A DNA stretch of 32,000 nt from Candidatus Saccharimonadota bacterium (GTDB taxonomy: Bacteria; Patescibacteriota; Gracilibacteria; Absconditabacterales; Absconditicoccaceae): contig JAUIDC010000001.1 in assembly GCA_030429145.1 (NCBI GenBank), forward strand, positions 180,001 through 212,000, given 5' to 3'. The position numbers and the translations under genes are program-made. Shown here piece by piece: positions 8,701-31,133 of this stretch (within the stretch, counting starts at the first letter, position 1; each line of letters starts with the position of its first letter). A model generated the notes under the pieces. That model worked only from the letters and a program-made list of their open reading frames with translations. It was not told the origin of the DNA and searched no databases.

Positions 8701-9050
8701 AGATTAAAAAACTGTCTGAGATACGATGAAAGTGACTCAATATAGCGATACTGCCCCTCTTTATAGACTGTATCAAATGCAAATGATGACTTTCCGGAAC
8801 CAGAAACTCATACCACTGAAACTATGTTGTTCTTCGGGATAGTAATATCAACATCACGAAGATTGTGCGTCTTGATACCACGGAAAACAATTTTTTCTCC
8901 CTCTGGCTGATAGACCTCAGAGTGGATATGCTCTCCGGCAGCGATAATTTCCTCATGGGTTACCGCCTTCATTACCTTCTTTTTCGCTGTCGTTTTCTTC
9001 TTTGCTACTGATTTTTTCGCTGGAGTCTTCTTTTTTGCGCTACTCGGCAT
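5793..9050 (-). CDS. uvrA: excinuclease ABC subunit A (UvrA) with a K/A-rich N-terminal tail
   Basis: Track ORFs 8808..9056, 8364..8609, 6951..8342, 6642..6878 and 5883..6623 share one frame and are separated only by TGA (8808, 8364, 6951, 6945, 6642, 5883). The true stop is TAA at 5793-5795. Motifs: Walker A VV-G-VSGSGKSS, EI-G-P-G-SG (= IGPGAG), zinc modules CQHCHGLG, CPECHGSK and CPACDGYG..CELCHGKRY, and signatures LSGGEIQR and LSGGESQR. I place the start at ATG 9048-9050; an alternative TTG is at 9054-9056. Confidence 0.92.
8970..9050 (-). other. low-complexity segment coding the UvrA Lys/Ala-rich N-terminal tail
   Basis: MPSSAKKKTPAKKSVAKKKTTAKKKVMKAV precedes the conserved UvrA N-terminus (..FRGIKTHNLRDVDITIP). 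Confidence 0.7.
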
Positions 9051-9060
9051 AAGCAAAACA

Positions 9061-9066
9061 ATTATA
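9061..9066 (-). promoter_or_regulatory. -10 hexamer TATAAT 10 nt upstream of the uvrA ATG
   Basis: The minus strand reads agtgTATAATtgttttgcttATG. No Shine-Dalgarno motif is present, which implies a very short leader. Confidence 0.4.
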
Positions 9067-9112
9067 CACTAAATCGAATATTCCTTTATAGCCTTTTTAA
9101 CGCAAATTACAA

Positions 9113-9149
9113 TCATAAAAAAGTGCGCAAGGAAAGAAAACCTCGCGCA
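9113..9149 (-). terminator. rho-independent terminator (minus strand) inside the uvrA-upstream spacer
   Basis: The minus strand reads TGCGCGAGG-ttttcttt-CCTTGCGCA followed by CTTTTTTAT: a 9-bp stem with one mismatch, then a U-tract. Confidence 0.55.
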
Positions 9150-9190
9150 TAGATCATTTAATGGTGTCGTGGCAGTAAGTAAGAGCCACC
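9113..9190 (-). ncRNA. candidate small RNA / orphan transcription unit (~70-80 nt)
   Basis: It is bounded by a sigma70-like promoter (9194-9221) and the terminator at 9113-9149. It contains a second hairpin, GTGGC..GCCAC (9169-9189). There is no ORF, and I recognise no known RNA family. Confidence 0.25.
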
Positions 9191-9193
9191 CCC

Positions 9194-9221
9194 AGTATGA
9201 CAAATCTGTTATTGATTGCAA
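9194..9221 (-). promoter_or_regulatory. sigma70-like promoter TTGCAA-16 nt-CATACT (minus strand)
   Basis: -35 TTGCAA at 9216-9221 and -10 CATACT at 9194-9199, with a 16-nt spacer. It lies immediately downstream of the 9222-9256 terminator. Confidence 0.3.
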
Positions 9222-9256
9222 ATAAAAAAAGAGGGCGCTGGTGAAAACCAGCCCCC
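9222..9256 (-). terminator. rho-independent terminator of the 9416..10387 gene
   Basis: The minus strand reads GGGGGCTGG-ttttca-CCAGCGCCC followed by TCTTTTTTTATTT. Confidence 0.6.
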
Positions 9257-9415
9257 ATTAACCCATTAAATTCACTTCTTAGCAACAAAAAAGTTTATGA
9301 ACAAAGCTGAAATGTCATAGCTTTTGTTAACCGCGGAAATGAACACAGAGAAGGATCACAACTCCTTCAATGTCAGCACGTAGTATACCTATAAATCAAT
9401 AGAAAGCAAGGTTAT

Positions 9416-10387
9416 TTACTGCGCGAAATTGAGCATCGTCAGTACGTCAATTTCGTCACTGTCTCGCTGTCTTTGAAAGGTATGGAGATCGCTTGTGTGG
9501 TGAAGTGGCACTATGAAGCCATTTGTCGTTTTTCTATACTGTTCGTTAAATCTTTCGAGAAAATACTTATTTGATAAAAGTGATGATGCGATAATGAGGT
9601 CTTGTCCAGGCTTGACGAACTCTTTCATCCAACGGGTCAAAGTTTCAGAAAAGAAGTCTACAGACTGGATCACCAAGTTTTTAGCAAACTCATTGAGGTC
9701 GATCTCGGCAGCAGATTTGAAGAAAAATGGCAGTACATTGTTTTCCTTGTAGATATCTTTGAGCATGCGCACACCAAGATTGATTCTCTCACATTTGGTA
9801 TATTTTCCGTGGGTAAGCGTGATTACCTTTGCGTATTCGTCGAATATGTAGAGAAGTTGTAATTGTGGTTTATGTAAAGATTTTTTGAGATAGCCCACCG
9901 TGTAGAAACTTTGTGGATAGATTTTTATCTTGGATGTTTCACGACCGAAGATGGATTTTATGATATTTGCCGTACGTTTTTGGAGGAAAACAAAGGTCAG
10001 AGTTGCGTGGATAGTCCCGATTTCACCAAGAATGTAAGGCTTCGTTTGACCGTCAACAGTAATATTATCAATCAGGTAGAAAAGCTTTTCCCCCCCTGCT
10101 TTGAAGTGAGATTTTATATAACCGAGCCTCTCGTTGACGATCTCCTGAATATCTCTCACTGTGATCTTATCCGTAGTGCAAAAGTCGAGATCAACCGTAT
10201 ACAGATCGAAGTGATCCTCATCGAGCAAGATGGCAATTGACTCTTTTTTTGTGTGAAAACCATAGGCATCGCGCACCATCTGCTTCAAATCTCCGGATTT
10301 TTGCGACGTCTGAAATTTGCCTCCATGTTTATGAAAGTAGCTGTATCATCCTTTTTCGTTGCCCTGTCTCTCCACAAAAATGTGCAT
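9416..10387 (-). CDS. hypothetical protein (about 290-323 aa); start uncertain
   Basis: Track ORF 9416..10288 stays open upstream through one TGA (10346-10348) to ATG 10385-10387; another candidate ATG is at 10277-10279. Stop is TAA at 9416-9418. No confident family motif. Confidence 0.45.
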
Positions 10388-10534
10388 ATTTTCGCAAAAA
10401 CCGATATGTATTAAATAGAAAACAGCGCTACTATATTTATATAGGCGTTATCAATCAAGACAGAAAAACCGTTGTAATCATTGACAATAAACCTAGTATA
10501 CTGATTGTACGCTATTTAGTTAGTAAACGAGTGC

Positions 10535-11632
10535 ATGGGTAACCTCTTCCCGTATATTTGATCAGCCATCTTGTGTATTATGGTCGCCATCTTTGGGATC
10601 GAAGTTTTTACAAAATGGAAAATCCTCGATAAACCAGGACCTGATGTACCTGCTCGTGCAGGGGTGCCAAACATGCAGGGAATATTTCTTGTCGTTGGAT
10701 TTATTGCATCGATGCTGATCTTCTTTCCAAGTTATCTGCAACAAGATGCCTTTCTTGGACTCCTCTTTGGTGGGCTACTCATCGCAATTGTCGAAAGTGT
10801 CGATACCATCTTGGGTCTCAACTATAAGGGCTTAAAGACAAAATGACTCAATAAGAAAATCAGAGTGCTCGTGCAGATCGTTGTTGCTCTGATGGCCATG
10901 TTTGTCGGGGGTATCAATATAGAAAATATCACATTGGGAAATCTTACTATCACACTCCCCTTCATCGTGACGGTAATCATCTTGATCGTTTGGTTTGGCG
11001 TCTTTATGAATGCCATCAACCGGTTTGATGGTATCAATGGCCTCTCCAGTGGTGTCTCAACTATCTGATTTTTGACTATCTATCTCCTCTTACAACAGGT
11101 TGTTTTCCCGTCGTTTCCTTACATGAGCGCACAAAGTGTTGCGACTCTTAGCATGGTCTCAGATATTGCATTTGTCATGACCATCCTTGGTTTGATCTAT
11201 ACTACAATAGAATACAAACCAATGGGAAGACTCAGAGACATAGGAACGATGTTTATGTGATTTGTGCTCGCCTATCTGGCACTGCTTGGTGGGGCAAAAA
11301 TTGGAACTATCCTTGTAGCACTCTCTCTTCCTATCTTCGACGCCATCCGAGTATTCATCAATAGACTATTTATCATGAAAAAATCGCCTCTGAAAGGCGA
11401 CTATACTCACCTCCACTACAGACTGCTTGCTCTTGGGCGAAATCGCAATGAGATACGTCGATTCGTATGGTGACGATCTATTTTCTTTATGATCATCATC
11501 CTCTTACAAGACACTGACAGGATCGCCAAAGTCATCATCTTTATCATGATGGCAGCCATCTTCTTTGGCGTCAACATCTACCTATTCCGAGTAAAAAAAA
11601 TGCCAATGGAATATAAGCCGGAGAAGAAGTAA
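10535..11632 (+). CDS. glycosyltransferase family 4 polyprenyl-phosphate sugar-1-phosphate transferase (WecA/MraY-like)
   Basis: Four track ORFs (10571.., 10865.., 11072.., 11264..) share one frame and are joined by TGA at 10844, 11066, 11258 and 11471. ATG is at 10535 and TAA at 11630-11632. Motifs: LDKPGPDVPARAGVPNMQG, NAINRFDGINGLSSG, RDIGTMFM-G-F, PIFDAIRVFINRL..GDYTHLHYRLL. The protein is multi-pass hydrophobic throughout. Confidence 0.8.
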
Positions 11633-11666
11633 TCTAGATTTTTATTATTCTACTATTGAAACACCC

Positions 11667-12440
11667 ATGGAACACTATGTACAATTTGCGAAAGAGTTTG
11701 TGCGTGAAGCAGGAACTATTGCAAAAAAATATTTCAATAGTGACACTACTCAATGGAAAGATGATATGACACCAGTTACTAAGGCTGATCTAGAAATCAA
11801 TACTCTTCTTATAACAAAAGTTAATGAGCTTTTTCCCTGACACAGAGTCATTGGCGAAGAAGAAAGCACAAACAATGAGTCGGACTACTGTTGGATTTGC
11901 GATCCCATAGACGGAACGATCCTATATAGAGTTGGTATTCCTGTATTCTCTGTATGTATCTCGCTTCTTCACAAGTGAAAGCCACTCCTAGGTGTCATTT
12001 ATGATCCCATCATGGATAGATTGTTCTACGGCGATGGACAATCCTCTTACCTGAACGACGAGATCATCAACGTCAACAATGAAGACAATTTAGAAAAATG
12101 TGTTATTGCAATAGAGAATTTTCCAAAAGATGTATATGATTTAGGAGAATTATATAAACAGCTAACTGCTTTAAATATAAAAGTAGTACAATTTGCATCG
12201 ATTGCATACCCAACTGCTCTTATTGCATCTGGGCAAGTAAGTGCCACAATTTTTCCTATGAACCAAATCTGGGAATTTGCTCCTGCTATGCCCATTATTA
12301 CAGGTGCGGGAGGCAAGGTAACTACATTTACTGGCGACAACCCAGACTTTCTAGACCCCGCCCACTGTTATGTAGCATCTAATGGAAAAATTCATGACTT
12401 CATACTTGATATTATTAAGAAGACAGTAAAAATAGATTAA
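11667..12440 (+). CDS. inositol monophosphatase family protein (SuhB/IMPase-like)
   Basis: ATG 11667 to TAA 12438-12440 with two in-frame TGA codons. Motifs: VIGEEES, CDPIDGT, WEFAPAMPIITGAGGKV (WDxAAG-like). It absorbs track ORF 12012..12440. Confidence 0.8.
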
Positions 12441-12441
12441 C

Positions 12442-14778
12442 ATGCAACTCTTAGCAACGACCTATCAGAATATATGACCTTTTTTGGACCGTACGTTGAC
12501 GGTATGTTTTCGTCAGGGGAAATTTTTGATTAAGGCGCCAATAGGAAGTGGAAAGTCGTTTCTGTTTTTTGACGGGCCGGTTTTTGGGCTCTACAAGTAC
12601 AGCTGACGTACGATGCTGAGTATGAAAGCAAAGGAAGGATACATTAAGGTGCTTATGGAGGCGTGAGATGGTTATTTTCTCGTCGTGAGGAATCTTACTC
12701 GTACGAAATCATGAGGAGATAGTGTGAAATCAAAGTTATTTCAGGTAGATATGGATGCGTCATCGGCGCAACAAATTATGAGTGACCTCGGGAATGTGAT
12801 CAATGAAAATAGTGATATAGAAAATGTTTTGTTGGATAATAATATTAAGCTAGAAGAGGTTGTCTTCAAAAATGAGACTGACCTACAGCAAAACATGACA
12901 GACTTTCTGCCGCCGAGAGAGGTCTATACGAGCACGACATTTCTAATGCAGGATAGCGAAAATATGTTTGAGATGACACCTGCTGATAGGATCAATGTAT
13001 TTAAGAATATCTTTGGACTGCTCGATATTGATGAGGCAAAAGATCTGATTTCTGATGCGAAAAAAGAGACTACTGCTCTGCTCAAATCGAGACGCAATAC
13101 CGATGATGTAAATACGAAGTTGCAGAGAGCTGTGCATGAGTATCTCGAGCTTGTAGAAGAAAAAAATGAGCAATGGAGCGACGAAATTTTGTCACATGCG
13201 AGCGACTGGACTCTTGTGAAAGAGAAGCTGAGTATCGAGAATTTTGACATCGCATCGCTACCGCTCGCATCGTGGCAGGAGCTGGCGGTCAGATATGATC
13301 AAGAAAGAGCGAAGTATCAAAGCCTGCTAGGCCAGCTCCAAGCGCTAGAGAAGCAACACAAAGCCAACAACGAAGAGACAGTAAAACTAGCAAAACAAAA
13401 AGAGGAAGCAAAGCAACAGATCACAGAGCTAGAAAAGAAACTTGCGACAGACAATAGTTCTATCGTGAAGAAGCTACAACAAGAAAAAAACTCACTCATA
13501 CAACAACAAGAGCAAATCATCACCGCTCTACCTCTACAAGAACTTCACATAGATTCTATCTCTGATTTGGTCATTCATATCAATGATCTCCTCCAAAAAG
13601 GAAAGAGCATCAGTAAAGATAAAGACCATCTGGATGAGAAGTTGAAGACGGTAGAGAAACAGATGAAAGAGTTTGATCAGAAAAAAGTATCCATTGAAGA
13701 ACAGCTGAAACTTCTTGCTGAGAATCGTAAAAAACAAGAATTTGTCTGTGATCTCATCGGAGATAAACCTTGTCCGTACGTAGACCTTATCAACAAAGGA
13801 AATCTCAAAAGCCTTGATAAACAGGAAGAACATTTTCAACAAGCACTGAAAGATCTTGATAAAGACGCGCTCGAGAAAGAGCGTGAAAAAATAGTAAAAG
13901 AAATCACGCAGGTCGAGAAAGAGTTAGCTACAGCAAGAGATGAATATAAAAAATATAGTTCCCCAGAGATAAAAGAGAATATAGAGACATACAACACTCT
14001 GGATAAGAAACGTCAAGAGATAGACAAAGAACTACTGAAATATGAGAATGAGCAAGACAAACAAGATAAATACAAGGAAGAGATCGTACAGTTGAAAGCG
14101 AAAATAACGCATTATGAGGACGCTCAGGCAAATATCGCACAACAAGAGAAAAAGCTTGCGGATGAGATCGCTCAGTTAAAATCACAAACTGATATTAATC
14201 AACTGGATAAGATCGAGGCGACACTTTCCTCTATCTCGAAAGGGATGAAAATACTAGAATATATCTCTGAACTTGTGGGCACACACAAAAACAATCTCCT
14301 CATGATCAAACAACTTGAGGAAAAAGAGACCATGCTTGGACAGCTCTACAATATTTTTAGCAAAGAGATCATGATCTATGTGCTGCAACAGACGCTTCCA
14401 CTTTTTGCAGATGTCTTAAACAATCTACTAGCGAAGGTGGTTGATTATACTGTGAGTTTCGAAACGAAAAATGTAAGAGACAAGGTGGAACTTGAAATTA
14501 AGATTCATGACTCAAAAGGCGAAAGACTAGTGAAATCCCTCTCTGGTGGACAAAAAACCGTGCTCAGACTCACGTGGACGCTTGCGATCTGTATTTTCAC
14601 TCGCAGCAATGCACTTTTCCTTGATGAAACAGTGAATAACATTGATAGAGACACTATTGGAAAAGTAGCAGACCTGATTGAGGACTTCACGAAAACACAT
14701 GAGATTACTTTCTATATTATCACTCACTCTGAGGCTATTCAGGAGATGGAAATTTGGGATAAGGTGATTAGCCTTTAA
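12442..14778 (+). CDS. SbcC/Rad50-like SMC-type ATPase (778 aa)
   Basis: ATG 12442 lies 1 nt after the IMPase stop. The N-terminal 94 codons are missed by the ORF track because of four TGA codons. Walker A is KAPIGSGKSFLFFDGPVFGLY, followed by a long K/E/Q-rich coiled coil. The C-terminus has LSGGQKTVLRL, ALFLDE and ITHS. Stop is TAA at 14776-14778. Confidence 0.8.
13747..13776 (+). other. Cys pair at the coiled-coil midpoint (possible zinc-hook variant)
   Basis: FVCDLIGDKPCPYV lies at about residue 435 of 778, where Rad50/SbcC proteins carry the CxxC hook. The spacing here is C-x7-C-P, which is not canonical. Confidence 0.3.
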
Positions 14779-15802
14779 CATCAGCATGACAAAGCTCTTC
14801 CCGATCCTCTACATTACTCATAAGATAAGCCCTTCTACTAGAAAACACTGTATCCAAGTTTTTTTCTATAATAGCCACTTGTTCTTTTAAAGCATTCACA
14901 TCTTGTAGGTTTTTATCAAAGTGATGGTCAAATGCAGTATGTATAACCATCTTCACAGGAACAACCTCAAGAGTCTCGTCTTTTTTGTTCGACTTTACTA
15001 GCTGATCAAGTTTCTGAAAAAGAGGTGTATTATGCTTCTTATAATTTTTCCATTGCTCATAATGAGGCACAACATGCTCCCCATATTCTCCTATAAAAGA
15101 TTTTGCATCGATTAAGTAGACGATAATATATTTCTTACCAGATCTGTGCACCACCCTATCCGTCACTACGATATCCACTCCATTGTTCAGATCAAAAGCT
15201 TTAACATGCGTACTTTCTAATTGAAGAATAGATAGTCATTGCTTTTTATCAAACAAATCGAGAACCAAAGCATGTGAAAAGAATCATTTCACTGCATTGC
15301 TCAGCGATATGTGAGTTTGTGCAGAAAAAGTAGGTGGAACTTCGCGTTGCACGATTGACTTAAAATGATTGAGAAACTCTGGTAACCTCTCTACGTGACT
15401 GTGTTTCAGGAAATAACGCTGAATACAAGATGCCATTTTCTGTTGTAAAAAACTGCTTGCCAATAATATCCTGTAACGCTCCTCTGGAGTATTTTGAAAT
15501 GTTGGTAGGTTAAAGTTTTTCAGTTCAGAGGTAATTTCTCCTTCTAGATAAGCTATAGCCTCTTGGAAAAGCTGAATCTCTCTATTTTCTCTCTTTTTCT
15601 CTCTACGACGAATAGCATCAGCTATCTGTTGCGCAATTACGGGAGACAAATTCACGTTTGACTCTGTCAATCCCCTAGCAAGCTTCTGTTTGGTATGCTC
15701 TGTTACTAACTCTTTTCCATGGTTAAATTGTTCTCCATTGTGAGGAGAACGCTCTTTTGCACCTATATCTTTCCTAAATACACTCCTATAATTTCTTGCC
15801 AT
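14768..15802 (-). CDS. hypothetical protein (344 aa); C-terminal half carries a PD-(D/E)XK-nuclease-like motif
   Basis: Track ORFs 15284..15835 and 14768..15178 share one frame and are joined through TGA at 15284 and one further TGA. I place the start at ATG 15800-15802; stop is TAA at 14768-14770. Candidate motif: LQLES..GVDIVVTDRVV..KYIIVYLIDAKSF (E...D...D-x-K). It overlaps the SbcC-like gene end by 11 nt, convergently. Confidence 0.5.
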
Positions 15803-15807
15803 ATCCG

Positions 15808-15813
15808 ATAATA
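15808..15813 (-). promoter_or_regulatory. -10-like hexamer TATTAT 5 nt upstream of ATG 15802 (leaderless-type arrangement)
   Basis: The minus strand reads gaTATTATcggatATG. Confidence 0.3.
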
Positions 15814-15886
15814 TCAAAAATTGAGCATATAACACTTAAAAAGCATTATACAGCTCAATTATGTAAAGTCAAGGGTCTTAGAAAGG

Positions 15887-18256
15887 CTATTCCTTAATAT
15901 TCTGCGTATTTTTACAGTCAGGATATTTATTACATGCAAGGAAGTAACCGCGTCTTGATTTCTTCACGTGCATAGTACCTTTTTCACACTTATCACACTT
16001 CTTTCCGCCAAACTTCTCCTCAAGTTCCTCCATTTTTTCATCAGGGATAGACGAGATCCACTTTACCTTTGGATATTCTGAGGATGTCAGGAATGGACCG
16101 AATCTACCCATCTTCACGACGATAGTTCCACCCTCTGGACATGGCTTCCCTTCATATTTCTCACGTAGTGGAGCCAAAGCGTCTTTCTCTTCCTGTGTCT
16201 TCTCCGTGTAGTCACACTCTGGATAGTTACTACATCCTATAAATTTGCCAAAACGAGTAAACTTATAGATAAGATCACCGTCTGTACATTTTGGACATTT
16301 TTTCCCAACAGGCACCACTTCTTTCTCACTCTTTTTCGCAGCATTAATCGTCTTTTCAAAGCCTGTATAAAACTCTTCCATCATCTTTTTCCAACCCTTC
16401 TTTCCTTCTGCGATCGTATCGAGTTCATCTTCCATCTTCGCTGTGAACTCATAATTCATCAAATTTTCAAAATTCTTCTCCAAAAAATCTACTACCAAAA
16501 AGGCTATCTCGGTTGGATGAAGCTTTTTATCCTCTTTCTTTACGACGTACCCTCTCTCCTGCACAGTAGAGATAGTCGGCGCATATGTTGAAGGACGTCA
16601 TACTCCGTATCATTCTAGAGCTTTTACAAGCGACGCCTCGGTGTATCTTGCTGGTGGACGCGTAAATGATTGGTGTGCTCTGACGTAGTCAGCAGGTAGC
16701 GTTATTCATTTATCAAGATTTGGTAACGTCTGATCACCTCCTTCTTCCTCATTTTCCTCATCCTGTCCATAGAGAGCAAGAAAACCAGGGAAGACTATAC
16801 GCTTTCCTTTAGCAACCCACTCCTGCTCTGTTCCTTCAGGAGTAAATGTATAAGTGGTATTGAGTACCTTAGCACTTGCCATCTGTGATGCAACCGTACG
16901 AGCCCAAATCAGCTCATAGAGCTTCAGTTCCTGACCACTCAGCCCCGACGTTTGTGGCGTACGATCCACATATGTTGGTCTGATAGCTTCATGCGCCTCT
17001 TGGGCATTTTTACTCTTTGTTGAAAATTTTCTCACGGTCAAATAGTCTTTGCCGTATGCATGTTCAATATATTTTGCCGCAGCATTGATTGCCATGCCAG
17101 AGAGATTGACACTATCCGTTCTCATATAGGTGATGAAACCTCTTTCGTAGAGCTTCTGTGCTGTCATCATCACCTGTTTCACTGACCACCCTAGTCTTGA
17201 TGCTCCTGCTTGTTGGAGCGTAGACGTTGTAAACGGTGCTGCAGGGTTTCTGGTAGAAGTTTTTTCCCCGATATCCATGAGACTAAACCTGCTGTCAGCC
17301 GAGTAAGTATGTACAAGCCACCCAGTCTTTTCATTCGTTTCGACCTGAGGAGTCAGATTGCTCGTCAAAGTTTTCACCATCGCCTCGGCATCAGCGAGGG
17401 TATGAAGCTTAACAGCCTTGCCCGCATCTTTATGTAGCTCACAAGATAAAGAAGTTTTTTCATATTTCAGATCTGTTTTGAGTGTCCATGACTCTTCTGG
17501 TTTGAAGTTCTGTATCTCTCTTTCTTTCTCTACTATCATTTTTACTGCTACCGACTGTACACGTCAAGCAGAAAGTCCACGACGAATCTTTGTCCGTAAG
17601 ACTGGTGATACATTAAATCACACGAGACGGTCAAGTACACGTCTTGCCTGTTGCGCATCTACGAGATTCATATCAATATGTCTCGGATTTTCTACTGCAG
17701 CTTGTATAGCATCTTTCGTAATCTCATGAAAAACTATACGTGGCGTCTTGTCTACGGGCAAACCAAGGACATGAGAAACATGCCAAGCAATAGCCTCTCC
17801 TTCGCGGTCCTCGTCCGTTGCAAGCCATACTTGTTTTGCCACTTTTGCATCTCTTTTCAACTCTGCAATGACTTTTTTCTTGTCTGCTGAAACCTCATAG
17901 GTCGGTGTAAAGTTTTCTTTTACATCAATACCTAAAGTCTTTTGCGGCAAATCAGCCACATGTCCAAATGAGGCCTTTACTTCTCGGTCTTTACCAAGAA
18001 ATCACTGGATAGTTTTCCCTTTTGCAGGAGACTCCACAATGACAAGATTTCTTCCTGTCACGTCTGCTCCTGAAAGCGTATATGATCTTGTTGCTCTTGC
18101 TGTTGTCTTCTTCGCGGCAACTTTCTTCGTCGTCTTTTTTGTAGCTGTCTTCTTCGCTGATGATTTTTTTGCTACTTTTTTCGCTGTAGTCTTTTTTGCC
18201 TTTTTCGCTGGTGCGGCGCTATCGGCAGAACGCTTAGTCGTCTTTTTCGCTACCAT
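15887..18256 (-). CDS. topA: DNA topoisomerase I with a Lys/Ala/Thr-rich N-terminal tail
   Basis: Track ORFs 18002..18256, 17618..17959, 16706..17539 and 15887..16564 share one frame and are joined only by TGA (18002, 17618, 17564, 16706 and two more in 16565-16705). Motifs: TOPRIM [50 protein letters not shown], and C-terminal zinc ribbons CPKC..CSNYPEC and CDKC..CNKYPDC. Stop is TAG at 15887-15889. Confidence 0.93.
18086..18256 (-). other. low-complexity segment coding the TopA Lys/Ala/Thr-rich N-terminal tail
   Basis: MVAKKTTKRSADSAAPAKKAKKTTAKKVAKKSSAKKTATKKTTKKVAAKKTTARATRS precedes the TOPRIM core. I found no alternative ATG between the tail and the core. Confidence 0.8.
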
Positions 18257-18330
18257 TGTCTGTAATGATCAATCTTAGAGATACAAAATGAATTTCACTA
18301 TAGTCAAACAAAAGAATGATTGCAAGATTA

Positions 18331-18356
18331 AGAAAAAAGAGTCCTTTCGGACTCTT
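18331..18356 (-). terminator. rho-independent terminator after the DsbA-like gene
   Basis: The minus strand reads AAGAGTCC-gaaa-GGACTCTT followed by TTTTTCTT. Confidence 0.75.
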
Positions 18357-18370
18357 CTATGAGTAACTTG

Positions 18371-19237: not shown

Positions 19238-19271
19238 AGAGTGTCTATACTAATAGGATAAATAGGGTGTT

Positions 19272-19658: not shown

Positions 19659-19752
19659 AAATAATAAAAAGCCCTTTACTCTAGTATTTTAACCGCAAAA
19701 AATCAAGCCGTCTCATCAACTTGCGATTGACAATGCTACAAAACACACTTCA

Positions 19753-20223
19753 TTATTCCTCGACATTTGGCGCACCACACGCAGGACAGTACTCATAGTG
19801 TACCTGATAGTGATGTTTACACTCTTTACATTTTGTCGTTAACTCACTCCCACAAGCAACACAGTGATCATGATAGAGCGGGTTTCTACTACCGCACGCA
19901 TAACACTGCACTATTTGCAATGCAAGAGACTCTCTCCATCACATACGATCCCATTTATATCTCGTAGGTCTTAATAGTCGATAGAGCGGAAGCCCAACAA
20001 CAGGTGTTCCAATACCTACCAATAAGATACACAATATCTGTATCCACACACTATGTGTTCTTGCACCAATATCCTTCATAGTCCACAGAATTGCGACTAC
20101 CCAAATAAAGAGGATCAGTCCGATACTCCAGGTAAATGCATCCGTATTCCCTTGAAAAACTGAGACAATCTGCTCAGCAAATGGTATTTGCATCAGATTT
20201 TCTAACATGTCATTGAGAAACAA
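19753..20223 (-). CDS. small membrane domain (PLDc_N-like) fused to a double zinc ribbon
   Basis: Track ORF 19939..20223 reads through TGA 19939-19941 to TAA 19753-19755. The N-terminal half is WTMKDIGARTHSVWIQILCILLVGIGTPVVGLPLYRLLRP. The C-terminal half has four CxxC pairs: CYAC..CVAC..CKEC..CPAC. The start is either TTG 20223 or ATG 20206-20208. Confidence 0.65.
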
Positions 20224-20238
20224 GATAAAAGCATACTA

Positions 20239-22449
20239 TTATTCGAGTGTCTTCTTTACTATCTTTAGGGAACCGACGTGTCTTTTCAATTCATTTATCA
20301 AGAATTGTATTTTAGAAGGATTATTTACATCGACTGTTAGATAGACGTACTGCTGTGCTTTTCCATGCATCTCTGAGTGGATGCCAGTAATATTGAGACG
20401 AAGCTGTGAGAATACCTCAAACATCTCTAGGAGGATACCTGGTTCATCTGCACACAGAAGCTTGAGAGAGAATCTGTATGTATTTCTCTGTTGGCCCACC
20501 CAGTGCGCTTCCATCAGTTTATTATACGAGATACTTTGGAGTGCTACACAGTCCATACGATGTACTTTGATACCATCTTTGCCTGAACGAGCAATAATTT
20601 TTTCTCCTACGGACGGACGACATTCAGGACAGAGGAAGTATCCAATACTGAGATCTCCATCAACCACAACAGTCTCTGCCAGTGGGGTTGGTGATGTTTT
20701 TGCTCTTTTTGCCTCTTTCTGTTTCAAGTGTTTGTCAGGTAGTATATCTTTATATATTTTTCTGACGAAAGTATAGTAACCAAACTGCTTATCAAGAAGT
20801 TGCAACAGCACACGATCAAATACCTCATTTTTATACTCTTTCGTGATACGGTCTTCTTTACTGTAGAGAGGTGGTAGATTAAGCTCTTTCAGTTTCATAT
20901 CCAGTAGCTTCAATGATTTGTCGAGAAGATGTTTTCTCTCTTTTGTCTTGAGGAATTTTGTCAATTTCGATTTTGCACTTGGTGTGTGTAAGTACTCAAA
21001 CCAGTTGCTTGACGCCGTGTGTTTGCTTTTGAAGGCGTTGACTACAACAATATCCCCTGTTTGTAAGGTATATGAAATAGGAGCAATACTACCGTTGACT
21101 GTCGCATTGTTAAATCTCAAACCAAGGTCAGTATGGATACGAAATGCAAAGTCTAAGACAGAGCTTCCTGCTGGCATCTCTATCACGTCACCTTTCTGGG
21201 TATACACGAAAATATTACGATCAAAAAGCTCTATGTTGAGTTCTGTTTTAAATTTTTCTTTATCTAACTCCGTTGTATATGCAGAGACAATCTCTTGCAG
21301 TTTTTTAATCCACTGCGCCTGACGCTCACTAATAGCAGTAGACCCACTATTTTCTGCATATGCAAAGTGCGCTGCCACGCCGTACTCTGCCACCTCGTCC
21401 ATCTCTTGTGTACGAATTTGAATCTCCACCGGGAAGTCAAACATACCGAGAATAGTAGTATGGATACTTTGGTATTCATTTGATTTAGGGATAGCGATAT
21501 AGTCTTTAATTTTTTTAATAAGTGGAATATAGTGTGCATGGATGATACCAAGGATATTGTAGCAGTTACCTATCGAGTCGGTAACGATACGAAACGCGAT
21601 CAGGTCGGTCACTTTCGATATATCCATAGAGTTGTATTTACGATTGAGTTTCTCGAAAATTCTGTAAGGACTCTTAATTCTACCGATAATATTGATCATC
21701 GGAAGTTTCTCCTCCTCGAGTAATTTTCTAATAATCTCCATTCACTTCTGCGTCACAGCGTCGTGTGCACCAAGCATCTTTTCAAGATAACCGAAAATCC
21801 TTTCAAACTCTTTCGGATGAAGAATCTTGAAAGCACCATTTTCCAAAAACTGTTGATAGTGGAATAACCCTAGTCTCTTTGCAATTGGCACGTAAATTTT
21901 CAACGTCTCCTCCGCGATACGATCTCTTTTTTCTTTTTTTGGATGGTAGTGCAGTGTCTGGATGTTATGGATACGGTCGACAAGTTTCACGAAAATTACA
22001 CGGAGGTCCTTACCCATAGCAAGAAATGTTTTCTTGAGTGTCTCAAGTTGTCTCTCCTCTCCAGAGTAACGCACCTTTGATACTTTTACCAACCCTTCAC
22101 AAAGTTCTGCGACCTCATCACCAAACTCTTTTTCAACGTCCTCGTAGGTAATAGGCGTATCCTCTATGACATCGTGCAAAATACACGTTTGAATCGTAGG
22201 AAGGTCCGGCTTCATAAGCATCAAAAAAAGAGTCGCACGAAGTGGATGTACGATGTAGGGCTCACCAGAAAGACGTTTCCCCTCTTGATGTGCCTTCTTT
22301 GTGAACTCATATGTACGTTGAATTTCTTTCAGATGTTTTGCAGGGAGATATTGTGCCGCAAGTTCTTTGATTTCGTCTACAAGAAATTGAGGATCCTCCG
22401 AGAAGATCGGCTCGTAATCAAAAAAGTGTTGGAGCTCTTTCAAATGCAT
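20239..22449 (-). CDS. rel: bifunctional (p)ppGpp synthetase/hydrolase (RelA/SpoT homologue, 736 aa)
   Basis: Track ORFs 21742..22449 and 20239..21741 share one frame and are joined by TGA 21742-21744. Domains: HD hydrolase (HPLRATL..ILHDVIEDT), synthetase (YIAIPKSNEYQSIHTTI..EIQIRTQEMDEVAEYGVAAH), TGS (FVYTQKGDVIEMPAGSSVLDFAFRIHTDLG) and a C-terminal ACT-like region. Stop is TAA at 20239-20241. Confidence 0.92.
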
Positions 22450-22456
22450 GTTTTAG

Positions 22457-22462
22457 ACTATA
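22457..22462 (-). promoter_or_regulatory. -10 hexamer TATAGT 7 nt upstream of the rel ATG (leaderless-type arrangement)
   Basis: The minus strand reads tgtgTATAGTctaaaacATG, with no Shine-Dalgarno motif. Confidence 0.35.
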
Positions 22463-22497
22463 CACATTGGTTTTTTTCTTTGCAAGAGAAAGTGAGA

Positions 22498-23040
22498 CTA
22501 TTGTCGGAGAATGAGAAGCAAATCAAGCAGATAGTGGATAAGCTGCTGCTGCCGAAGGACTATAGCAACAATCATAATACCCAGGGCGGTTCCCCAGAAA
22601 ATATCAGCTGGAAAATGTTTATTGAGAACAATACGCGAGAGACTCACCGCACTGTAAAATAGCACGGCAGCAGCAGCGACTAACCCGACAAACACTGCCT
22701 GTATTCCCTCGATCTGTCACAGTAAAAATAGCGTAAACGCAGCTACAATAAAGCTATTTGACGTATGGATACTCGGAAACGCACTTGCATTTATTTTCTG
22801 TCGCCACTTCGTAAATGGCATCGGATGAGGTCTTTCTTTAAAATAGAAAAATTTGATAACTACTCCGATCCCGTATGATAGCCCCAGCGCGACTACGAGC
22901 ATTGCACTCATAAGAACAGCCTGATCAATATCAAGATAGCTATATGCTAGCAACGCAAACAAAGCCACTGGTATAATCAACACAGGGATCTTGCCGAAGT
23001 GGGTGATAAACTGTCGTAGTCTTACTTCTTTATGATGCAT
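22498..23040 (-). CDS. PAP2-family phosphatase (undecaprenyl-diphosphatase/BcrC-like)
   Basis: Track ORFs 22717..23040 and 22498..22695 share one frame and are joined by TGA 22717-22719. PAP2 motifs: KFFYFKERPHP, FPSIHTS, SRIVLNKHFPADI. Stop is TAG at 22498-22500. Confidence 0.8.
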
Positions 23041-23058
23041 TCTCTTTATCTATATCAT

Positions 23059-24822
23059 CTAAAATCCGCTTTGTAGCTCAAGCATCTTCGCATAGTGTCC
23101 CTGTTGAGCGACGAGCTCATCATGCGTTCCTCTTTCAATCACCTTGCCCTGATCCAATACGATGATATCATCAGCCTGCTTCACCGTTTGTAGTCTGTGG
23201 GCAATAATAATGACTGTTCTTCATTGAAACAAGTTATGCATTGCTTTAGTAATAGCTTCTTCGCTCAAAGAATCAAGCGCAGAGGTTGGCTCATCCAACA
23301 AAACAATCTTTGGATTTTTCAAGAATATCTTTGCTATAGCCAAGCGCTGACGCTGTCCTCCTGACAAACGGATACCTTTCTCACCAATTTCTGTTTGCAG
23401 ACCGTCTTTGAAATCATAGATAAATTGACATTGCGCTAAGTCGAGGGCAGATTGTATATCTTGTAGCGTTGGATTTTTTGACAAGGAATATACGAGATTA
23501 TCGTAAATCGTCCCATCAAAAACATTTGGTTCCTGCGTAAGATACCCTATATGCGCATAATACGATTGTAATGACACAGATTCTTTTAGATTGTCTGTGG
23601 TCGGCAATTGTTGTCAGTCAACTGCGATATAGCCACCATCTACATGAAGATATCAAGCAATCAACTTCATAATGGTAGACTTACCTCATCACGAGACTCC
23701 AACCAAAGCCGTTTTACTTCCTCCTCCAATATCTAGACTAAAATCAGACAATACTGGTGTACTATGATACATAAAAGCTACCTTCTCAAAATGAATATCT
23801 CATCTTATATGCTCGAACTTCTTTCATGTATTATATCCTTTAATTTGTGGCGTTGTATCAAAAGTACGTCGCAGCTTAGTGACTCTTTGAAAGTTCTTTA
23901 CAAAGGCCTGATATATATCAATAGCACTTCTTGTCCCTGTGTCTAAGCTATTTGCAAGACCTAGATAGAGCACAATATCTGCGTAGCTAATATTTCACTG
24001 GAAAAAGTAATTATATCCTAACAGCAAGAATAATCCAATCGTGATAATTGTAATTGTTACCGTTGGAACATTGAAACCGATGTATTCATAGTGGTTCTTT
24101 TTTACATCGACTGCTTGCACTTTGTGGAATATGTCGCCCAGATTATTCGCCTCTACAGTAATTTTATTATTCACTAATATTTCAAACTTTGACATGATTG
24201 ACTTGATCGTCTGTCTCGTTAGATCATCGACAAGATCATTACGTTTCTCTCTCCAATGGTGACTAAAACGCAGAACATATATCTCAATCAATAAAGTAAT
24301 AATGAGAAATACATATAAAATCGTTGGCCCATACCAACCAATACGCGCAACAAGATAGGTCACAAATAGAAGTTGCATCACTGCTGACGATCACTTCACT
24401 GCAACATCCATCAGTAAACTGCCCCAAGCATCTATACCTTTATCAATAATAGCAAACATCTTTCACGTTCCGATAGATTCAGCAGCATTACTATCTAACC
24501 TAATAAACTTACCTAAATATTTGCGCCATAGGTTATTGAATAAAGTCCACATAGTCTTCACTCAAAAGTGCTTCATAGCAAAGTTATATAGCTGATAGCA
24601 AACAGCAAAAATCGCATACGCAATGATCGTATTGAAAAAAGCTCTTTGATCCCCCGTTTGTAGAAAGTGTGCTGCACGAGAAAGAACAAGAGTCGTGACT
24701 ATGCCATACAATGGCCATACCGACACATGTGCTACAGCTAATCAATATAATTTTCTAATATCCCATGCTGGTGCAAAAAACCTTTTCACCCCTCTCAAAA
24801 AAGAGTTCTTTTGTCAAGCCAT
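23059..24822 (-). CDS. ABC exporter, fused permease-ATPase (MsbA/multidrug type, 587 aa)
   Basis: One frame runs from ATG 24820-24822 to TAG 23059-23061 with at least ten TGA codons read as Gly. The N-terminal half holds six hydrophobic helices. The P-loop GVS-G-G-GKST has two consecutive TGA codons (23686-23691). Also [24 protein letters not shown] and IIIAHRL. Confidence 0.88.
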
Positions 24823-24852
24823 ACAATAGAAACAATGAGGAAATAATGAATC

Positions 24853-25260
24853 CTAAGACATCCCTAATGAGATAATACGATTATACTCTTCCTTTGTGAC
24901 CGGAGCAACCGATAAACGCTGCTGTTTCAAGAGGGTCATCTCTTGGAGGTTTTTTTCTTGTTTAATCTGTTCGAGAGTGACTGGTTTGTTAAGTTGCTTT
25001 TCAGGCACTAGGTCAACAGCCACCCATCTATCATCATCGGTTGTCGGATCTTGATAGGCTTCTTTGACGACCTTCGCTGTTCCAATAATTTCTTTTCACT
25101 CATTGCTGTGATACCAAAGGCAGATATCTCACTTTTTCATAGCCTGCAAGTTGTTGCGAGCCTGATAGTTTCTCACACCATCCCAAAATGTTTTCTTCTC
25201 TTTCACAAATTTTTCCCACGAATACTTATATGGTTCTGTCTTAATCAATCGATATTGCAT
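24853..25260 (-). CDS. EVE (PUA-like) domain protein (135 aa)
   Basis: ATG 25258-25260 to TAG 24853-24855. It is absent from the ORF track because of two TGA codons. The sequence MQYRLIKTEPYKYSWEKFVKEKKTFWDGVRNYQARNNLQAMKK-G-DICLWYHSNE-G-KEIIGTAKVVKEAYQD...LKQQRLSVAPVTKEEY matches the EVE pattern (KxEP..WDGVRNYQARN..GD..YHS..RLSV). Confidence 0.8.
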
Positions 25261-25293
25261 ACAAAAACATTCATATTGTAAATCTTCTAGTTC

Positions 25294-28071
25294 CTACTCA
25301 ATAATCTCTATCGGCGAGGTACTAATACGCGTCTTTCCATCTTCACCGAGGAGCACTGCTCTGACTTTGTCTCACTGCACAAGGTCTGCTGCAGCATCTA
25401 CGTACGGACACGGGCAGACATTACACTGCCCTGCGATGACACCTGCTGGAGTGTCAGGGATATCAATAAACTCAGGACAGCCATCTTCATCTTCCACTCC
25501 GTTCATATTTTCTGGCGTGTCTGGGCAGGCATCTTTGCTATCGGTGATACCATCACCATCTCTGTCATCATCAGGGATGATAAGACCTTCACAGATGTCG
25601 CCGATGAAATTACCATTGATATCTGCTTGGTCTGGATTGACAGTGAGTGAGCAGTTATCAAGTGTATCTCCCCTGCTGATACGATCAATCATCGTAAGGA
25701 TGATGGAGTTGTTAAGATCTGATGGGCGATATCTACACTGTGGTGGTTGACGAAGGATGAGGCCAAGCATATTTTTCTTGCCATCACCGTCAATATCCTC
25801 ATCACACATGTCTGGTATGGTGTCACCATCCATATCACATGCACCTGCTACTGGAGGCTTTTGCAAACAAAGTGGTACACCGAGCACTGTCACATGTGCT
25901 GCAGGATAAAATCGCTGCCCATCAGTATCTTCTACGCGAGCACGTATACGATAAATACCTGGTTTGATGTAGGTATACTCGTACCCATTGGTGATGCTAT
26001 TGTCAAATGTCAGTGACTGCCCATCTCACATATCGACTATGATGCGAGAGATATCAGGCCAGTTCAATCCATTGAGCACAAAGCGATAGTTCACTGGCTC
26101 GCCAGTATTCATCACAAGCTTTGCTGGAATAAGATCTACTCCTTGGTCGTTTCATGCTTGTAGTGGGAGTACGTTGATATTGATAATATTTGTTAGTTCG
26201 CTGCCATCAAGTAAGTAGATAGTTTGTTTGACGATCTTTGGTCCTGCTTCTGCGTAGGTATGAGTATATGTTGAAGAGTTGTTTGTTTGAATGATCCCGT
26301 CACCAAAATCCCATTTGATAGAAACGATATCTCTTCTCTGGATACCAGCTGTCACTGTTGTAAACGTAATAGGTTGTGAGATGGTAGGGTTGAGGTTGGA
26401 TGCTCTGAGATATGCAGAGATGTCACCATTGAGCGAGACAGATCCCTGTGCATATGCGACTATTTGTTGATCGTCGTATGCTTGTGCAACGATTGGATAG
26501 GTGCCTGCTGACTCATAAGCGAAAGAAACGACCTGTCCATTTGCACCCTCTTTTTGCTGAGTATTACTCTCCCACGCGATGCGTCAGACAGGACGAGTTG
26601 TGACAGGCGTGACGTTGATAGTTGCAGGCACATTTGCCGTCAGTGGATTTGGTAAAATTTGGAAACCGAGCGCTGCCTGCAAGTCCGGCACTACGACAAT
26701 CGTCGTTGTTGCTACATAGGTCTTTTTACCACCAAGCGCTGTAAGCACAACCTCATAGGTTCCTGGTCCTGGGAATGTGTGAGACACGGCTCTACCCTGC
26801 CCATAGGTACCATCACCAAAATCCCACGTAAAATCTTTCAACGCTCAGGTATATTGTGCTGCCAGTGCATAGGTACCATTTCTTATTTTTCTGCTGACAA
26901 TAGTGAGGCCAAAATATTCGCTCTCTGAACATGCGTCCCCTATCTCATCGTTATTGAAATCAGATTGGTCGGTATTGATAGTGAAGAGACAATTATCTAT
27001 TGGATCAGGATATTCTGCAATTACTTTCGTGTTAATATTTCCATTGTCATCAACGACTCCAATAGGGTTTTTCACTGTATCACCATCTATATCATCATCA
27101 CAGACGTCACCAATACCATCATTGTCTAGATCTCTCTGTGTGGGATTATAAGTCAGATAACAACTATCCGCATAGTCTTTGATACCATCCTTATCTTTAT
27201 CATCATCGTACACACAAGCCACCTTCTCTTTTACTCTTGCAAGAGAGGTCAACACCGTCGTTCCATCTACATAATCTCCAACATTGATACTATCTGCCTC
27301 ATCGGCAGAGATAATATCTTCAAGCACTAATATATTGAGTTCTGCAACCGGCCAAAATTGCTCTTGTGCGGTATCAAACTCACGCATACCACAGGCTTGG
27401 AGGTTAAACGTACAGTATTTGAGATAGACATTGAACTCATCGGCTGATTGCAGTGGCTGAGGCTGCGTGTATTGTGCAGCATTGCCTACAACAACGCCCT
27501 GCTCCTTGAGTGAAAAATATCTTCTGATGAGGGTGCTGTTGGCTGAACTTTGCATCCACTGCTCTATCTGTTGCCAGTCTGCAACATAGTGTGATGCTAT
27601 ACGCTCAGAAAGTATATTGATAATCACCTGTATAAAATCAGCAACCGTCGTATTGTTTGTTCCACAAAACTTTCCTCAACAAAGAGGACTCGTCTGTCTT
27701 GGGTATCCAGACATATATCACTGCTCAGCAACATAGGCAACACAGTAGTAGTTATTGTTCTCTTGTGTAGCAGGAGGTATGTATGAAACATCATCGAAAT
27801 TGACCGAGAGGTCGCTACGGAATGTTGTTCGCCAGGCAGAAGTAAGTCTATCTACTAGATCGCTACTCGGTCTACGACAGTCGTGACAGTCAACAAAGTT
27901 GAGCAGTCTTGCCACATCAAATCTTGAGACCACTGGTGCTGATTCTATGCTCGCAACATCTACGTTTACACTACGAAGCGAACGAGTAAAACTCTCGTAG
28001 TCGGCAAATGCTGCTCCTCCTACAAGTATCATACAGAGCGCTGACCACACTACGAGTAGTTTTTTTATCAT
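25294..28071 (-). CDS. 925-aa secreted surface protein: signal peptide, SLH-like region, thrombospondin type-3 (TSP3) Ca-binding repeats, about four PKD domains, second TSP3 block
   Basis: Track ORFs 27718..28071, 26845..27627, 26584..26841, 26152..26355 and 25372..25893 share one frame. I translated the gaps by hand and they hold only TGA (e.g. 27718, 27676, 26845, 26584, 26152, 26026, 25372). The true stop is TAG at 25294-25296. Signal peptide MIKKLLVVWSALCMILVGGAAFA. TSP3 strings DKDGIKDYADSC..NPTQRDLDNDGIGDVCDDDIDGD (about 26929-27210) and DMDGDTIPDMCDEDIDGDG..NPDQADINGNFIGDIC..DRDGDGITDSKDACPDTPE. PKD signatures WDFGDG (twice) and VDM-G-DG. Confidence 0.82.
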
Positions 28072-28103
28072 CCACTAATCAGTTGGGCAATATAAACAAG
28101 TTT

Positions 28104-28949
28104 TTATCTGAAACGAAAGAACGGACTTGCTGCACAGTTTTGCTGACATTCAAAGCCATTGATGACATACTGACCATTCTCTCTAATGATGTACGAATAC
28201 CATGTTTCACCATAAGTCAATCCGTCATTTTGCAAGATGTATGATGTGTTATACTGTACTACCATAGCATCTTCATTTCTTTGTACGATTGGATGATCTA
28301 TAACTGCATTTACATCACTTAGCTGTATGTCTCCGATGATGTTTTGCTTTCGACTCTCGAGTCTTGATGGACTGAAATACTGTACTAAGCCTGGATCAGT
28401 TGTGAATGTCGAATCAAACAGCGTTGGCATCTGATCAAACTTTCACTCATTGAAATACCCGTAAAATGTCTCAACCATCTTCTGTGCGTCGACAGGAAAT
28501 GCAGCATTGTCATTTGCTGGAAGCGGTAGCTGAGCATTTTGCTCTGTGTCAGTTGCACTTGCTCCGTTATTGTCCTGCTCTTCTCCACTCATAACATCTG
28601 CGCTATTGTTCTGCTCTGCCGGTACTGTGGTAGGCGGGTTATCTTTGTTGATCTGAATGTAGATACCCACGAGAACTAAGAGTGTTCCTAGCCCGAGAAC
28701 TATTAGTGACAAAAAATTATTTTTTCTCATGGCTGGATATTGTGATGTGAGTTCATCTTCTCGTAGGTTTTCATATGCCAAATCTTTGTCGATTGTTGCC
28801 GTACGATTGGCCGCTGTCTTTTTCGCTGTCGTTTTTTTCGCTGCAGTTTTCTTGGTTGTACTCTTTTTTGCTACAGCCGTTTTCTTCGTTTTCGCAGGTG
28901 CAGAACGGCGAGTAGAAGTTTTTTTTGCTGTTGTTTTTTTTGCAGGCAT
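28104..28949 (-). CDS. single-pass membrane protein with a histone-H1-like Lys/Ala/Thr-rich N-terminal tail and a C-terminal globular domain
   Basis: Track ORFs 28443..28955 and 28104..28430 share one frame and are joined by TGA 28443-28445. ATG is at 28947-28949 and TAA at 28104-28106. Order: tail, TM helix FLSLIVLGLGTLLVLVGIYIQI, a low-complexity linker, then about 150 aa (AQKMVETFYGYFNE-G-KFDQM...YIIRENGQYVINGFECQQN). Confidence 0.65.
28794..28949 (-). other. low-complexity segment coding the Lys/Ala/Thr-rich N-terminal tail of the membrane protein
   Basis: MPAKKTTAKKTSTRRSAPAKTKKTAVAKKSTTKKTAAKKTTAKKTAANRT. Confidence 0.7.
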
Positions 28950-31106: not shown

Positions 31107-31133
31107 AGTTATATGAGAACAAAAGATAAAAGA

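Follow-up and report, generated by a model that had tools for sequence, protein, structure and literature searches.

Lysine-rich terminal tails on TopA, UvrA and a membrane protein of an Absconditabacteria-type lineage as probable DNA anchors

Why should a topoisomerase, a DNA repair protein and a membrane protein, unrelated to one another, all begin with a long run of lysine, alanine and threonine? The question is raised by 32,000 nucleotides of contig JAUIDC010000001.1 (positions 180,001 to 212,000; assembly GCA_030429145.1, Candidatus Saccharimonadota bacterium), the whole of which we refer to as the window. Three minus-strand genes of the window – uvrA, topA and the gene for a membrane protein of 281 amino acids (aa) – open with such N-terminal tails. 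Comparison with orthologues indicates that the tails are genuine, translated, lineage-restricted and vertically inherited. The explanation that we consider probable is that they are disordered polycationic extensions belonging to an Absconditabacteria (SR1)-type lineage, and most likely non-specific anchors for DNA.

Composition and relatedness of the three tails

TGA is a sense codon here, read as glycine (code 25): TGA columns match invariant glycines of non-recoded homologues, among them residues 213, 231 and 553 of TopA and 81, 229 and 700 of UvrA. Read in this way the window, of about 40% GC, holds 25 long and tightly packed open reading frames (ORFs); a table-11 reading fragments them, leaving UvrA, for instance, just 463 aa. 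Once TGA is taken as sense, the coordinates and sequences that an earlier note on this DNA gave for the three tails hold. The UvrA tail (aa 1–26; 8973..9050, minus strand) contains 11 lysines and no acidic residue, for a net charge of +11; that of TopA (aa 1–57; 18086..18256, minus strand) has 19 lysines, three arginines and one aspartate (net +21); that of the membrane protein (aa 1–50; 28800..28949, minus strand), which is predicted to be disordered, has 15 lysines and three arginines with neither aspartate nor glutamate (net +18). Lysine and arginine thus make up a fraction of 0.36–0.42 of each tail, and a single acidic residue occurs among 133 tail residues, against 12.7% D+E in the window proteins overall. 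When a tail is defined as a 20-aa span with at least six K+R, at least 18 residues drawn from A, K, T, S, P, R, V and G, and no D or E, these three proteins are the only ones to qualify in a set of 159 six-frame ORFs with 50 aa or more; residue-shuffled proteins gave 0.15 qualifying on average, with a maximum of 2.

The earlier note saw in this one and the same tail, grafted onto three proteins. The sameness stands as far as composition is concerned and does not extend to the DNA. Inside the tails the codons vary synonymously (AAA/AAG, ACN, GCN), so that the tails are not a simple DNA repeat, and with one exception the DNA words common to pairs of tails are no longer than those found in synonymous-resampled controls. 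That comparison rules out that a single tail was recently copied, as DNA, onto all three genes, and with it the notion of a copied module. Because composition is common to the tails and DNA is not, we regard them as convergent and not as grafted copies. The exception is a 19-nucleotide identical word, AAAACGACAGCGAAAAAGA, in the UvrA and membrane-protein tails, which exceeds 99% of synonymous-resampled controls (p about 0.01; one of three tests) where the other two tail pairs gave nothing; it may be chance or the trace of a gene conversion.

No Shine-Dalgarno-like motif was found upstream of any window gene, so the start codons come without confirmation from a ribosome-binding site. Together with the AAA and AAG codons for lysine, this invites an account at the level of the mRNA, according to which an A-rich 5′ coding region would be selected as an unstructured initiation region and the lysine-rich peptide would be its by-product. 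Yet the tails run to 26–94 codons, far beyond an initiation ramp; their GC content of 0.41–0.44 is not below that of the window; AAR codons are no more prominent than GCN and ACN; and tails occur in only three of the 25 genes. Selection of this kind is, in our estimation, very improbable.

Inheritance of the tails on TopA and UvrA

The topA gene (15887..18256, minus strand) encodes 789 aa with seven in-frame TGA codons, six of which were mapped onto homologues. Pfam matches to Toprim (72 bits, from aa 71), Topoisom_bac (405 bits) and two Zn_ribbon_Top1 domains (110 bits) identify the product as a type IA DNA topoisomerase I; its nearest named relatives are Candidatus Absconditicoccus praedator (58% identity) and 'Absconditabacteria', and then Gracilibacteria. 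Nineteen of 120 TopA homologues carry a tail, of 30–94 residues ahead of Toprim, with a net charge of +7 to +25 and D+E of at most 0.09 against a background of 0.127. In 100 TopAs from Gracilibacteria and other lineages in the Candidate Phyla Radiation (CPR), only 2–16 residues precede Toprim and there is no basic stretch anywhere; in those of Planctomycetes, Saccharibacteria and other phyla the number is 2–19. Canonical cores do, then, start directly as the earlier note had it (2–19 aa before Toprim in TopA and 3–6 aa before the core in UvrA), and its view of the tails as lineage-specific additions to otherwise canonical enzymes is borne out by orthologues from related and unrelated lineages alike.

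In a neighbour-joining tree of TopA catalytic cores (from which P0029, being too short, was left out) 17 of the 19 tailed homologues group with the window protein in a single clade that includes no untailed member. Ca. Absconditicoccus praedator branches adjacent to this clade, and all untailed Gracilibacteria form a sister clade. Tailed TopAs retain the tail down to 48% core identity, none having lost it within the clade, and two of the 19 have an extra K-rich stretch at the C-terminus. The tree points to a TopA tail that is specific to the lineage and of single origin. A scan of genome contigs with TopA yielded one close relative, L001, and no long basic tails at the other loci (Gracilibacteria-type, other CPR, Planctomycetes and two distant matches). 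Two matches that apparently begin within the tail, at L005 and L010, proved to be artefacts of long upstream ORFs. In syntenic loci of nine further assemblies (L001, L035, L038, L040, L041/L042, L045, L046, L047 and L048, with L037, from Ca. A. praedator, as a non-syntenic TopA locus) the tails remain in frame and free of stops despite changes in length.

The tailed TopAs have a head motif in common, M-[PV]-x-KKTTRS-x-x-SAA-x-AKK, or in looser terms M-x-x-KKTT(K)RS-x-x-SAA-x-AKK. At the extreme N-terminus of the window protein (18200..18256, minus strand) and of orthologues P0001–P0015 it takes the form M-[PV]-x-KKTTRS-[AT]-x-SAA-[KP]-AKK, which is not purely low-complexity, and the membrane-protein head has a motif that resembles it, KKT-x-ARR-x-APAKK. 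The TopA motif could be a specific short linear motif – a site of interaction or modification – instead of bulk charge.

The uvrA gene (5793..9050, minus strand; 1085 aa, six in-frame TGA codons, Pfam ABC_tran and UvrA_DNA-bind) opens with MPSSAKKKTPAKKSVAKKKTTAKKKV, and the next residue is Met27 (8970..8972). Clade members have 8–95 residues before the UvrA core, usually with a K/T-rich opening. The extension also has a non-basic, clade-specific part upstream of the canonical UvrA start (aa 27–58, MKAVTHEEIIAAGEHIHSEVYQPEGEKIVFRG; 8877..8972, minus strand), which is kept at L001, L038 and L041: these closest relatives retain DEIIAAGEHIxxEVHLPEGEKIVFRG ahead of the canonical start and do not retain Met27. 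Because the segment is kept and Met27 is not, UvrA must start upstream at all three loci, and a downstream start is unlikely. The start at Met27, which the earlier note had raised as a possible objection to its own tails, therefore loses its force.

A broader form of that objection holds that translation begins at UvrA Met27, TopA GTG66 and membrane-protein Met74, and that the tails are open 5′ leaders. Downstream candidate starts exist (in TopA no ATG lies between the tail and Toprim, as the earlier note had observed, and GTG stands at codons 66 and 74), and the window genes lack Shine-Dalgarno motifs. Set against this, the tails, for all their changes in length, stay in frame and without stops in more than 10 genomes, the start of the membrane-protein head is conserved in 13 sequences (M1, P2, K4 and K5 are invariant), and a start at Met74 would delete a conserved juxtamembrane helix of that protein. 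That the starts have been mis-called is hardly credible.

UvrA also contains the internal insertion, acidic and then basic, that the earlier note had reported (aa 238–263, GGKDTEEASEDDDIEEETTKKKGKKE; 8262..8339, minus strand). It is real, and is kept in character in the closest relatives only: insertions of like character occur at L001, L038 and L041 and in P0135, and are absent from P0138, P0140 and canonical UvrA. The insertion lies within aa about 120–330, the region of PF17760 (UvrA_inter, the UvrB-interaction domain), which holds other clade-specific insertions as well; the domain, which canonical UvrAs show, was undetected in the window UvrA and its clade relatives.

The membrane protein, its neighbours and the spread of the tails

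The third carrier, encoded at 28104..28949 (minus strand), is a putative bitopic membrane protein. In an AlphaFold2 model based on a 13-sequence alignment its head (aa 1–52) has no secondary structure and a predicted local distance difference test score (pLDDT) of 30–38, as expected of a disordered segment. There follow a conserved juxtamembrane helix (aa 53–70), a transmembrane (TM) helix (aa 78–100; 28650..28718), a disordered T/G/N-rich linker and an alpha+beta domain (aa 153–270; 28140..28493) with a pLDDT of about 90, which ends in a conserved ECQxNC. Foldseek searches of the PDB with aa 153–270 retrieved the N-terminal domain of PBP5/PBP2a, the sensor NTF2 domain of RsgI9, and Bd1075 (E 1.6e-4 to 6e-4 over 115–126 columns); as modelled, the C-terminal domain has an NTF2-like fold, and the Pfam MecA_N match of the protein is sub-threshold. 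The positive-inside rule, together with the conserved cysteine pair of the C-terminal domain, would place the head in the cytoplasm.

The family is clade-restricted, comprising 12 orthologues with heads of the form MPAKKTxAKKTxARRxAPAKK, after which comes a basic stretch that varies in length, and, from a more distant subclade, two variants at L040 (1028–1789, plus strand) and L046 (1148–1987, plus strand). That these are orthologues is supported by profile comparison (L040 against the family profile: hhalign 99.9%, E 6.5e-31) and by synteny, both genes lying upstream of a surface-protein gene with PKD and thrombospondin type-3 (TSP3) repeats. A metagenome scan with the family yielded two loci. 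Where the window clade has its AKKT tail, the two variants – whose heads begin MVIESSQQPVKRGRGRPRK (L040) and MVLKSDQQPVKRGRGRPRK (L046) – carry KRGRGRPRK, to which L046 adds a second motif, KKRGPKPR. KRGRGRPRK is identical to the AT-hook-1 nonapeptide of human HMGA1, a peptide for which there is a crystal structure of the minor-groove complex with AT-rich DNA and which binds with micromolar affinity (PMC11526092). The GRP core of the AT-hook is absent from the window membrane protein.

On the minus strand directly downstream of the membrane-protein gene lies the gene for a secreted protein of 925 aa that contains PKD and thrombospondin type-3 repeats (25294..28071), an arrangement conserved across the clade, and after it that for an EVE-domain protein (24853..25260). 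On the other side, divergent from the membrane-protein gene and 171 bp from it, is a gene for a 145-aa SET-domain protein (29121..29558, plus strand; Pfam SET 87.7 bits), an adjacency confined to the closest relatives. The SET-domain protein ends in a short basic tail, KKNVGTKKKK (29526..29555), and an orthologue (L042:7490–7963, minus strand) has a K/A-rich C-terminal tail of 30 aa, SKKPAAKKKPAAAKAGSKKTVKKKK; the protein may take part in the same phenomenon.

How widely the tails are distributed was assessed in a clade sample of 14 loci (about 290 kb) with 239 ORFs of at least 90 aa in 106 families. Terminal tails occur in four of the families: TopA (12 of 12 members), UvrA (five of eight on the strict criterion), the membrane protein (four of seven; of the remaining three, two have AT-hook heads and one, at L048, is cut off at the edge of its locus) and, at the C-terminus, the SET-domain protein (one of three). 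This type of tail is therefore recurrent within the sampled clade loci. The sample gives no support to the proteome-wide module that the earlier note envisaged, and several DNA-transacting proteins have no tail. No further carriers were found in the non-syntenic 21-kb locus L044.

Further genes of the window and of related loci stand apart from the tails. The gene at 5079..5792 (plus strand) encodes a 237-aa protein with a Janus/Ocnus match (PF05005, 35.9 bits), presumably a mainly eukaryotic family of phosphohistidine phosphatases and, if so, unusual in a CPR bacterium. The 795-aa product of 2558..4945 (plus strand; 15 in-frame TGA codons) has an N-terminal Methyltransf_33 domain, of the type of the histidine methyltransferase EgtD, then a hydrophobic segment, and a C-terminal region of ~400 aa that gave no Pfam match. 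Genes of SQS_PSY (phytoene/squalene-synthase) type, UbiA prenyltransferase, amine-oxidase/desaturase type and polyprenyl synthase are clustered at 30252..31976 (minus strand) and at L039:5492–6973, an arrangement suggestive of an isoprenoid cluster of carotenoid or squalene type, which is notable for a metabolically reduced CPR genome. Type-IV-pilin-like genes with the N_methyl motif (FTLIEMLIV...) flank clade loci, many of them in tandem (L035:18970–22421; L042:2662–3243, 6933–7466 and 8106–8648; L048:17202–18443), as would fit the proposal that these bacteria are rich in pili and live attached to hosts.

What the tails may bind, and what they may do

That the tails bind DNA non-specifically is most likely, and the best-supported reading, on the evidence of orthologues and of analogous systems. 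The exchange of heads in the membrane-protein family is central to it. Such an exchange has a counterpart in myxobacterial CarD, whose H1-like and HMGA-type domains are interchangeable (Garcia-Heras et al. 2009, as cited in PMC2919716); CarD and one orthologue were, as of 2010, the only prokaryotic HMGA-like proteins known (PMC2919716). According to that citation one and the same position is occupied in some CarD orthologues by AT-hooks and in others by an H1-like K/A-rich domain, just as the membrane-protein family alternates between AKKT and KRGRGRPRK. CarD differs in being a soluble transcription factor that binds RNA polymerase and has its basic domain at the C-terminus, whereas here the basic head is N-terminal on a bitopic membrane protein and interchangeability is judged solely from phylogenetic replacement. 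The AT-hook in place of the AKKT head, taken with the alternation in CarD, makes DNA – the AT-rich minor groove above all – the ligand that the membrane-protein head most likely binds and, by extension, also the most likely one for the compositionally equivalent tails of TopA and UvrA.

Other precedents come from unrelated phyla. Lysine repeats at the C-terminus of Streptomyces TopA stabilise the complex with DNA and confer processivity (Strzalka et al. 2017, PMC5714199). The proteome-wide enrichment test that the earlier note proposed has been run there: 22 Streptomyces proteomes contain 554 lysine-repeat proteins, among which DNA-binding ones (FtsK, HupS, Ku, HrdB) are over-represented (p<0.001; PMC5714199). 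The likeness is close, in that the same enzyme carries a lineage-specific run of one or two lysines spaced by A/T-type residues, and the same genomes bear like tails on further proteins, unrelated and for the most part DNA-binding. The differences are that the repeats of actinobacterial TopA (Streptomyces and Mycobacterium) are C-terminal on an enzyme without zinc fingers, whereas the window TopA has its tail directly before Toprim and keeps two Zn_ribbon_Top1 domains; and that here, in a genome of ~40% GC, the lysines are set apart by shorter, T-rich spacers, UvrA and a membrane protein are among the carriers, and the tails are known from sequence alone.

PAKKA repeats on Ku, on Hlp and at the N-terminus of Deinococcus HU led to the view that unrelated DNA-binding proteins have repeatedly evolved lysine-rich low-complexity sequences (Kushwaha & Grove 2013, PMC3553676). 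Like the tails described here, those of mycobacterial Ku and Hlp/HupB and of Deinococcus radiodurans HU are terminal, fast-evolving and K/A/P-rich, sit on unrelated DNA-binding or repair proteins and vary in length among close relatives, the HU of Deinococcus providing an N-terminal case (PMC3553676; PMC5676037). Phyla and carriers differ, UvrA and membrane-protein carriers not being described there, and the present tails are T-rich and P-poor (AKKTT as against PAKKA). Chlamydial Hc1 and Hc2 and the C-terminal domain of histone H1 are likewise K/A-rich, acid-poor and disordered, and the SET gene that adjoins the membrane-protein gene extends the parallel; those, however, are dedicated chromatin proteins, whereas the present segments are appended to enzymes and to a membrane protein. 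The resemblance to H1/Hc2-type tails to which the earlier note had drawn attention can be recovered in Pfam, where HC2 (PF07382) is the best match of the membrane-protein head. Membership of that family is rejected, all scores falling below the gathering threshold of 40 bits (25.6 for the membrane protein, 20.2 for its tail alone, 8.7 for the TopA tail and no match for that of UvrA), and the likeness is a compositional resemblance only.

Several observations weigh against a general role in binding DNA. The Pfam matches are all under their gathering thresholds, not only for HC2 but also for AT_hook (PF02178), to which the L040 and L046 heads score 15.2 and 14.8 bits where the cutoff is 17.4. 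Tails are absent from sigma70 and RadA just beyond the window, from an SMC/SbcC-like ATPase and a TrmB regulator, and from DinB and a LexA-like protein at L037. In the 106-family sample about nine other DNA-related families are untailed, so that two to three of about 11 DNA families have tails compared with one to two of about 95 others; since one of the carriers, the membrane protein, has nothing else to link it to DNA, the enrichment among DNA proteins is weak, and only suggestive. An exhaustive phmmer search with the tails alone, against 1.84 billion representatives, returned no matches, low-complexity queries being suppressed; a full-length search with the membrane protein, its tail included, retrieved no other tailed families. 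Finally, the closest relatives show a weak UvrA tail (for example MARISKVNDRIAGSGKKKPASAKAK), and the AKK repeats of the window protein look like a recent expansion in comparison with L001, L038 and L041.

Such an expansion is what one would expect if slippage in A-rich lysine codons at the 5′ ends of genes produced low-complexity segments that are disordered, tolerated and without selected function. Turnover is indeed fast (30–94 aa in TopA, 8–95 aa in UvrA), and the tails are without homology at the level of DNA. Neutrality sits poorly, however, with the retention of the tail by every TopA orthologue of the clade even at 48% core identity, with a consistently strong charge and the depletion of acidic residues, and with the conservation of head motifs. 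Synonymous variation shows that it is the amino acids, and not a DNA repeat, that have been maintained, and the AT-hook subclade has replaced the tail and not simply lost it. We consider purely neutral expansion improbable.

A more serious question is whether DNA is the polyanion concerned. The main ligand might instead be RNA or ribosomes, polyphosphate or anionic membrane lipids, or the tails might drive condensates. Two reports of comparable proteins add to the points that tell against DNA: the histone-H1-like disordered region of PhaF binds RNA (PMC12818456), and AlgP associates with polyphosphate granules and helps to space them evenly in Pseudomonas (PMC9239181). Within the CPR, an A/K-rich C-terminal region has been noted on a ribosomal protein, uS19 of Parcubacteria (PMC9297842); the membrane-protein tail adjoins the inner leaflet; and the L046 head has a weak match to a Pfam 'RNA binding Region'. 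Against this stand the facts that TopA and UvrA, two of the three carriers, are enzymes dedicated to DNA, that orthologues swap the membrane-protein tail for the exact AT-hook of HMGA1, which is specific to the minor groove of DNA, and that the experimental precedents on TopA, Ku and HU all concern DNA. Another polyanion as the main ligand seems to us rather unlikely.

The tails arose within code-25 Patescibacteria, in the Absconditabacteria (SR1)-type lineage, and have been passed down vertically from then on; their length and exact sequence drift freely, and what is retained is the composition – lysine with A, T, S or P and almost no D or E. If they are DNA anchors, their action may be envisaged as follows. 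They would hold DNA electrostatically or by way of the minor groove, in the manner of the histone H1 C-terminal domain, Hc2 and PAKKA repeats. By analogy with Streptomyces, the TopA tail may stabilise the complex of enzyme and DNA and so raise processivity; that of UvrA may lengthen residence on undamaged DNA during the search for damage; and that of the membrane protein may retain chromosomal DNA on the cytoplasmic side of the membrane, joined by its one TM helix to an extracytoplasmic NTF2-like domain.

A bolder extension takes in the SET-domain protein. Chlamydial cpnSET binds and methylates the H1-like Hc1 (PMC3980110), and on that precedent the SET enzyme might modify the lysine-rich tails. 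Absconditabacteria would in that case possess a small, eukaryote-like 'chromatin toolkit', in which the bitopic protein tethers the nucleoid to the membrane by a cationic head that can be exchanged – H1-like AKKT repeats in one version, an exact HMGA1-type AT-hook in the other – and that is coupled to an extracytoplasmic NTF2-like sensor domain, and in which lysine methylation by the SET methyltransferase tunes how tightly this head and the tails of TopA and UvrA bind DNA. The scheme parallels the action of cpnSET on Hc1 in Chlamydia and of SET enzymes on archaeal chromatin proteins; we think it doubtful, and offer it as speculation.

The principle of such tails has already been published for Streptomyces, mycobacteria and Deinococcus, and those of Absconditabacteria, for which we found no report in the literature, are a further case. 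New here are the N-terminal position on TopA, the use of UvrA and of a bitopic NTF2 membrane protein as carriers, the occurrence in a low-GC, recoded CPR lineage, the alternation of AKKT and AT-hook heads, and the neighbouring SET-domain gene. Lysine repeats have been suggested to be typical of GC-rich genomes (PMC5714199), a suggestion contradicted by the present genomes, which are of 31–44% GC. For annotation the message is that long N-terminal extensions in metagenome-assembled genomes of this lineage are genuinely coding and ought not to be trimmed away. The alternation of AKKT and AT-hook within one family amounts to a natural experiment that points to DNA binding, and it makes the membrane protein a candidate for tethering the nucleoid to the membrane in these ultra-small cells. 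A known strategy, the disordered lysine-rich DNA anchor on DNA enzymes, would thereby be extended to the reduced, recoded and host-dependent Absconditabacteria.

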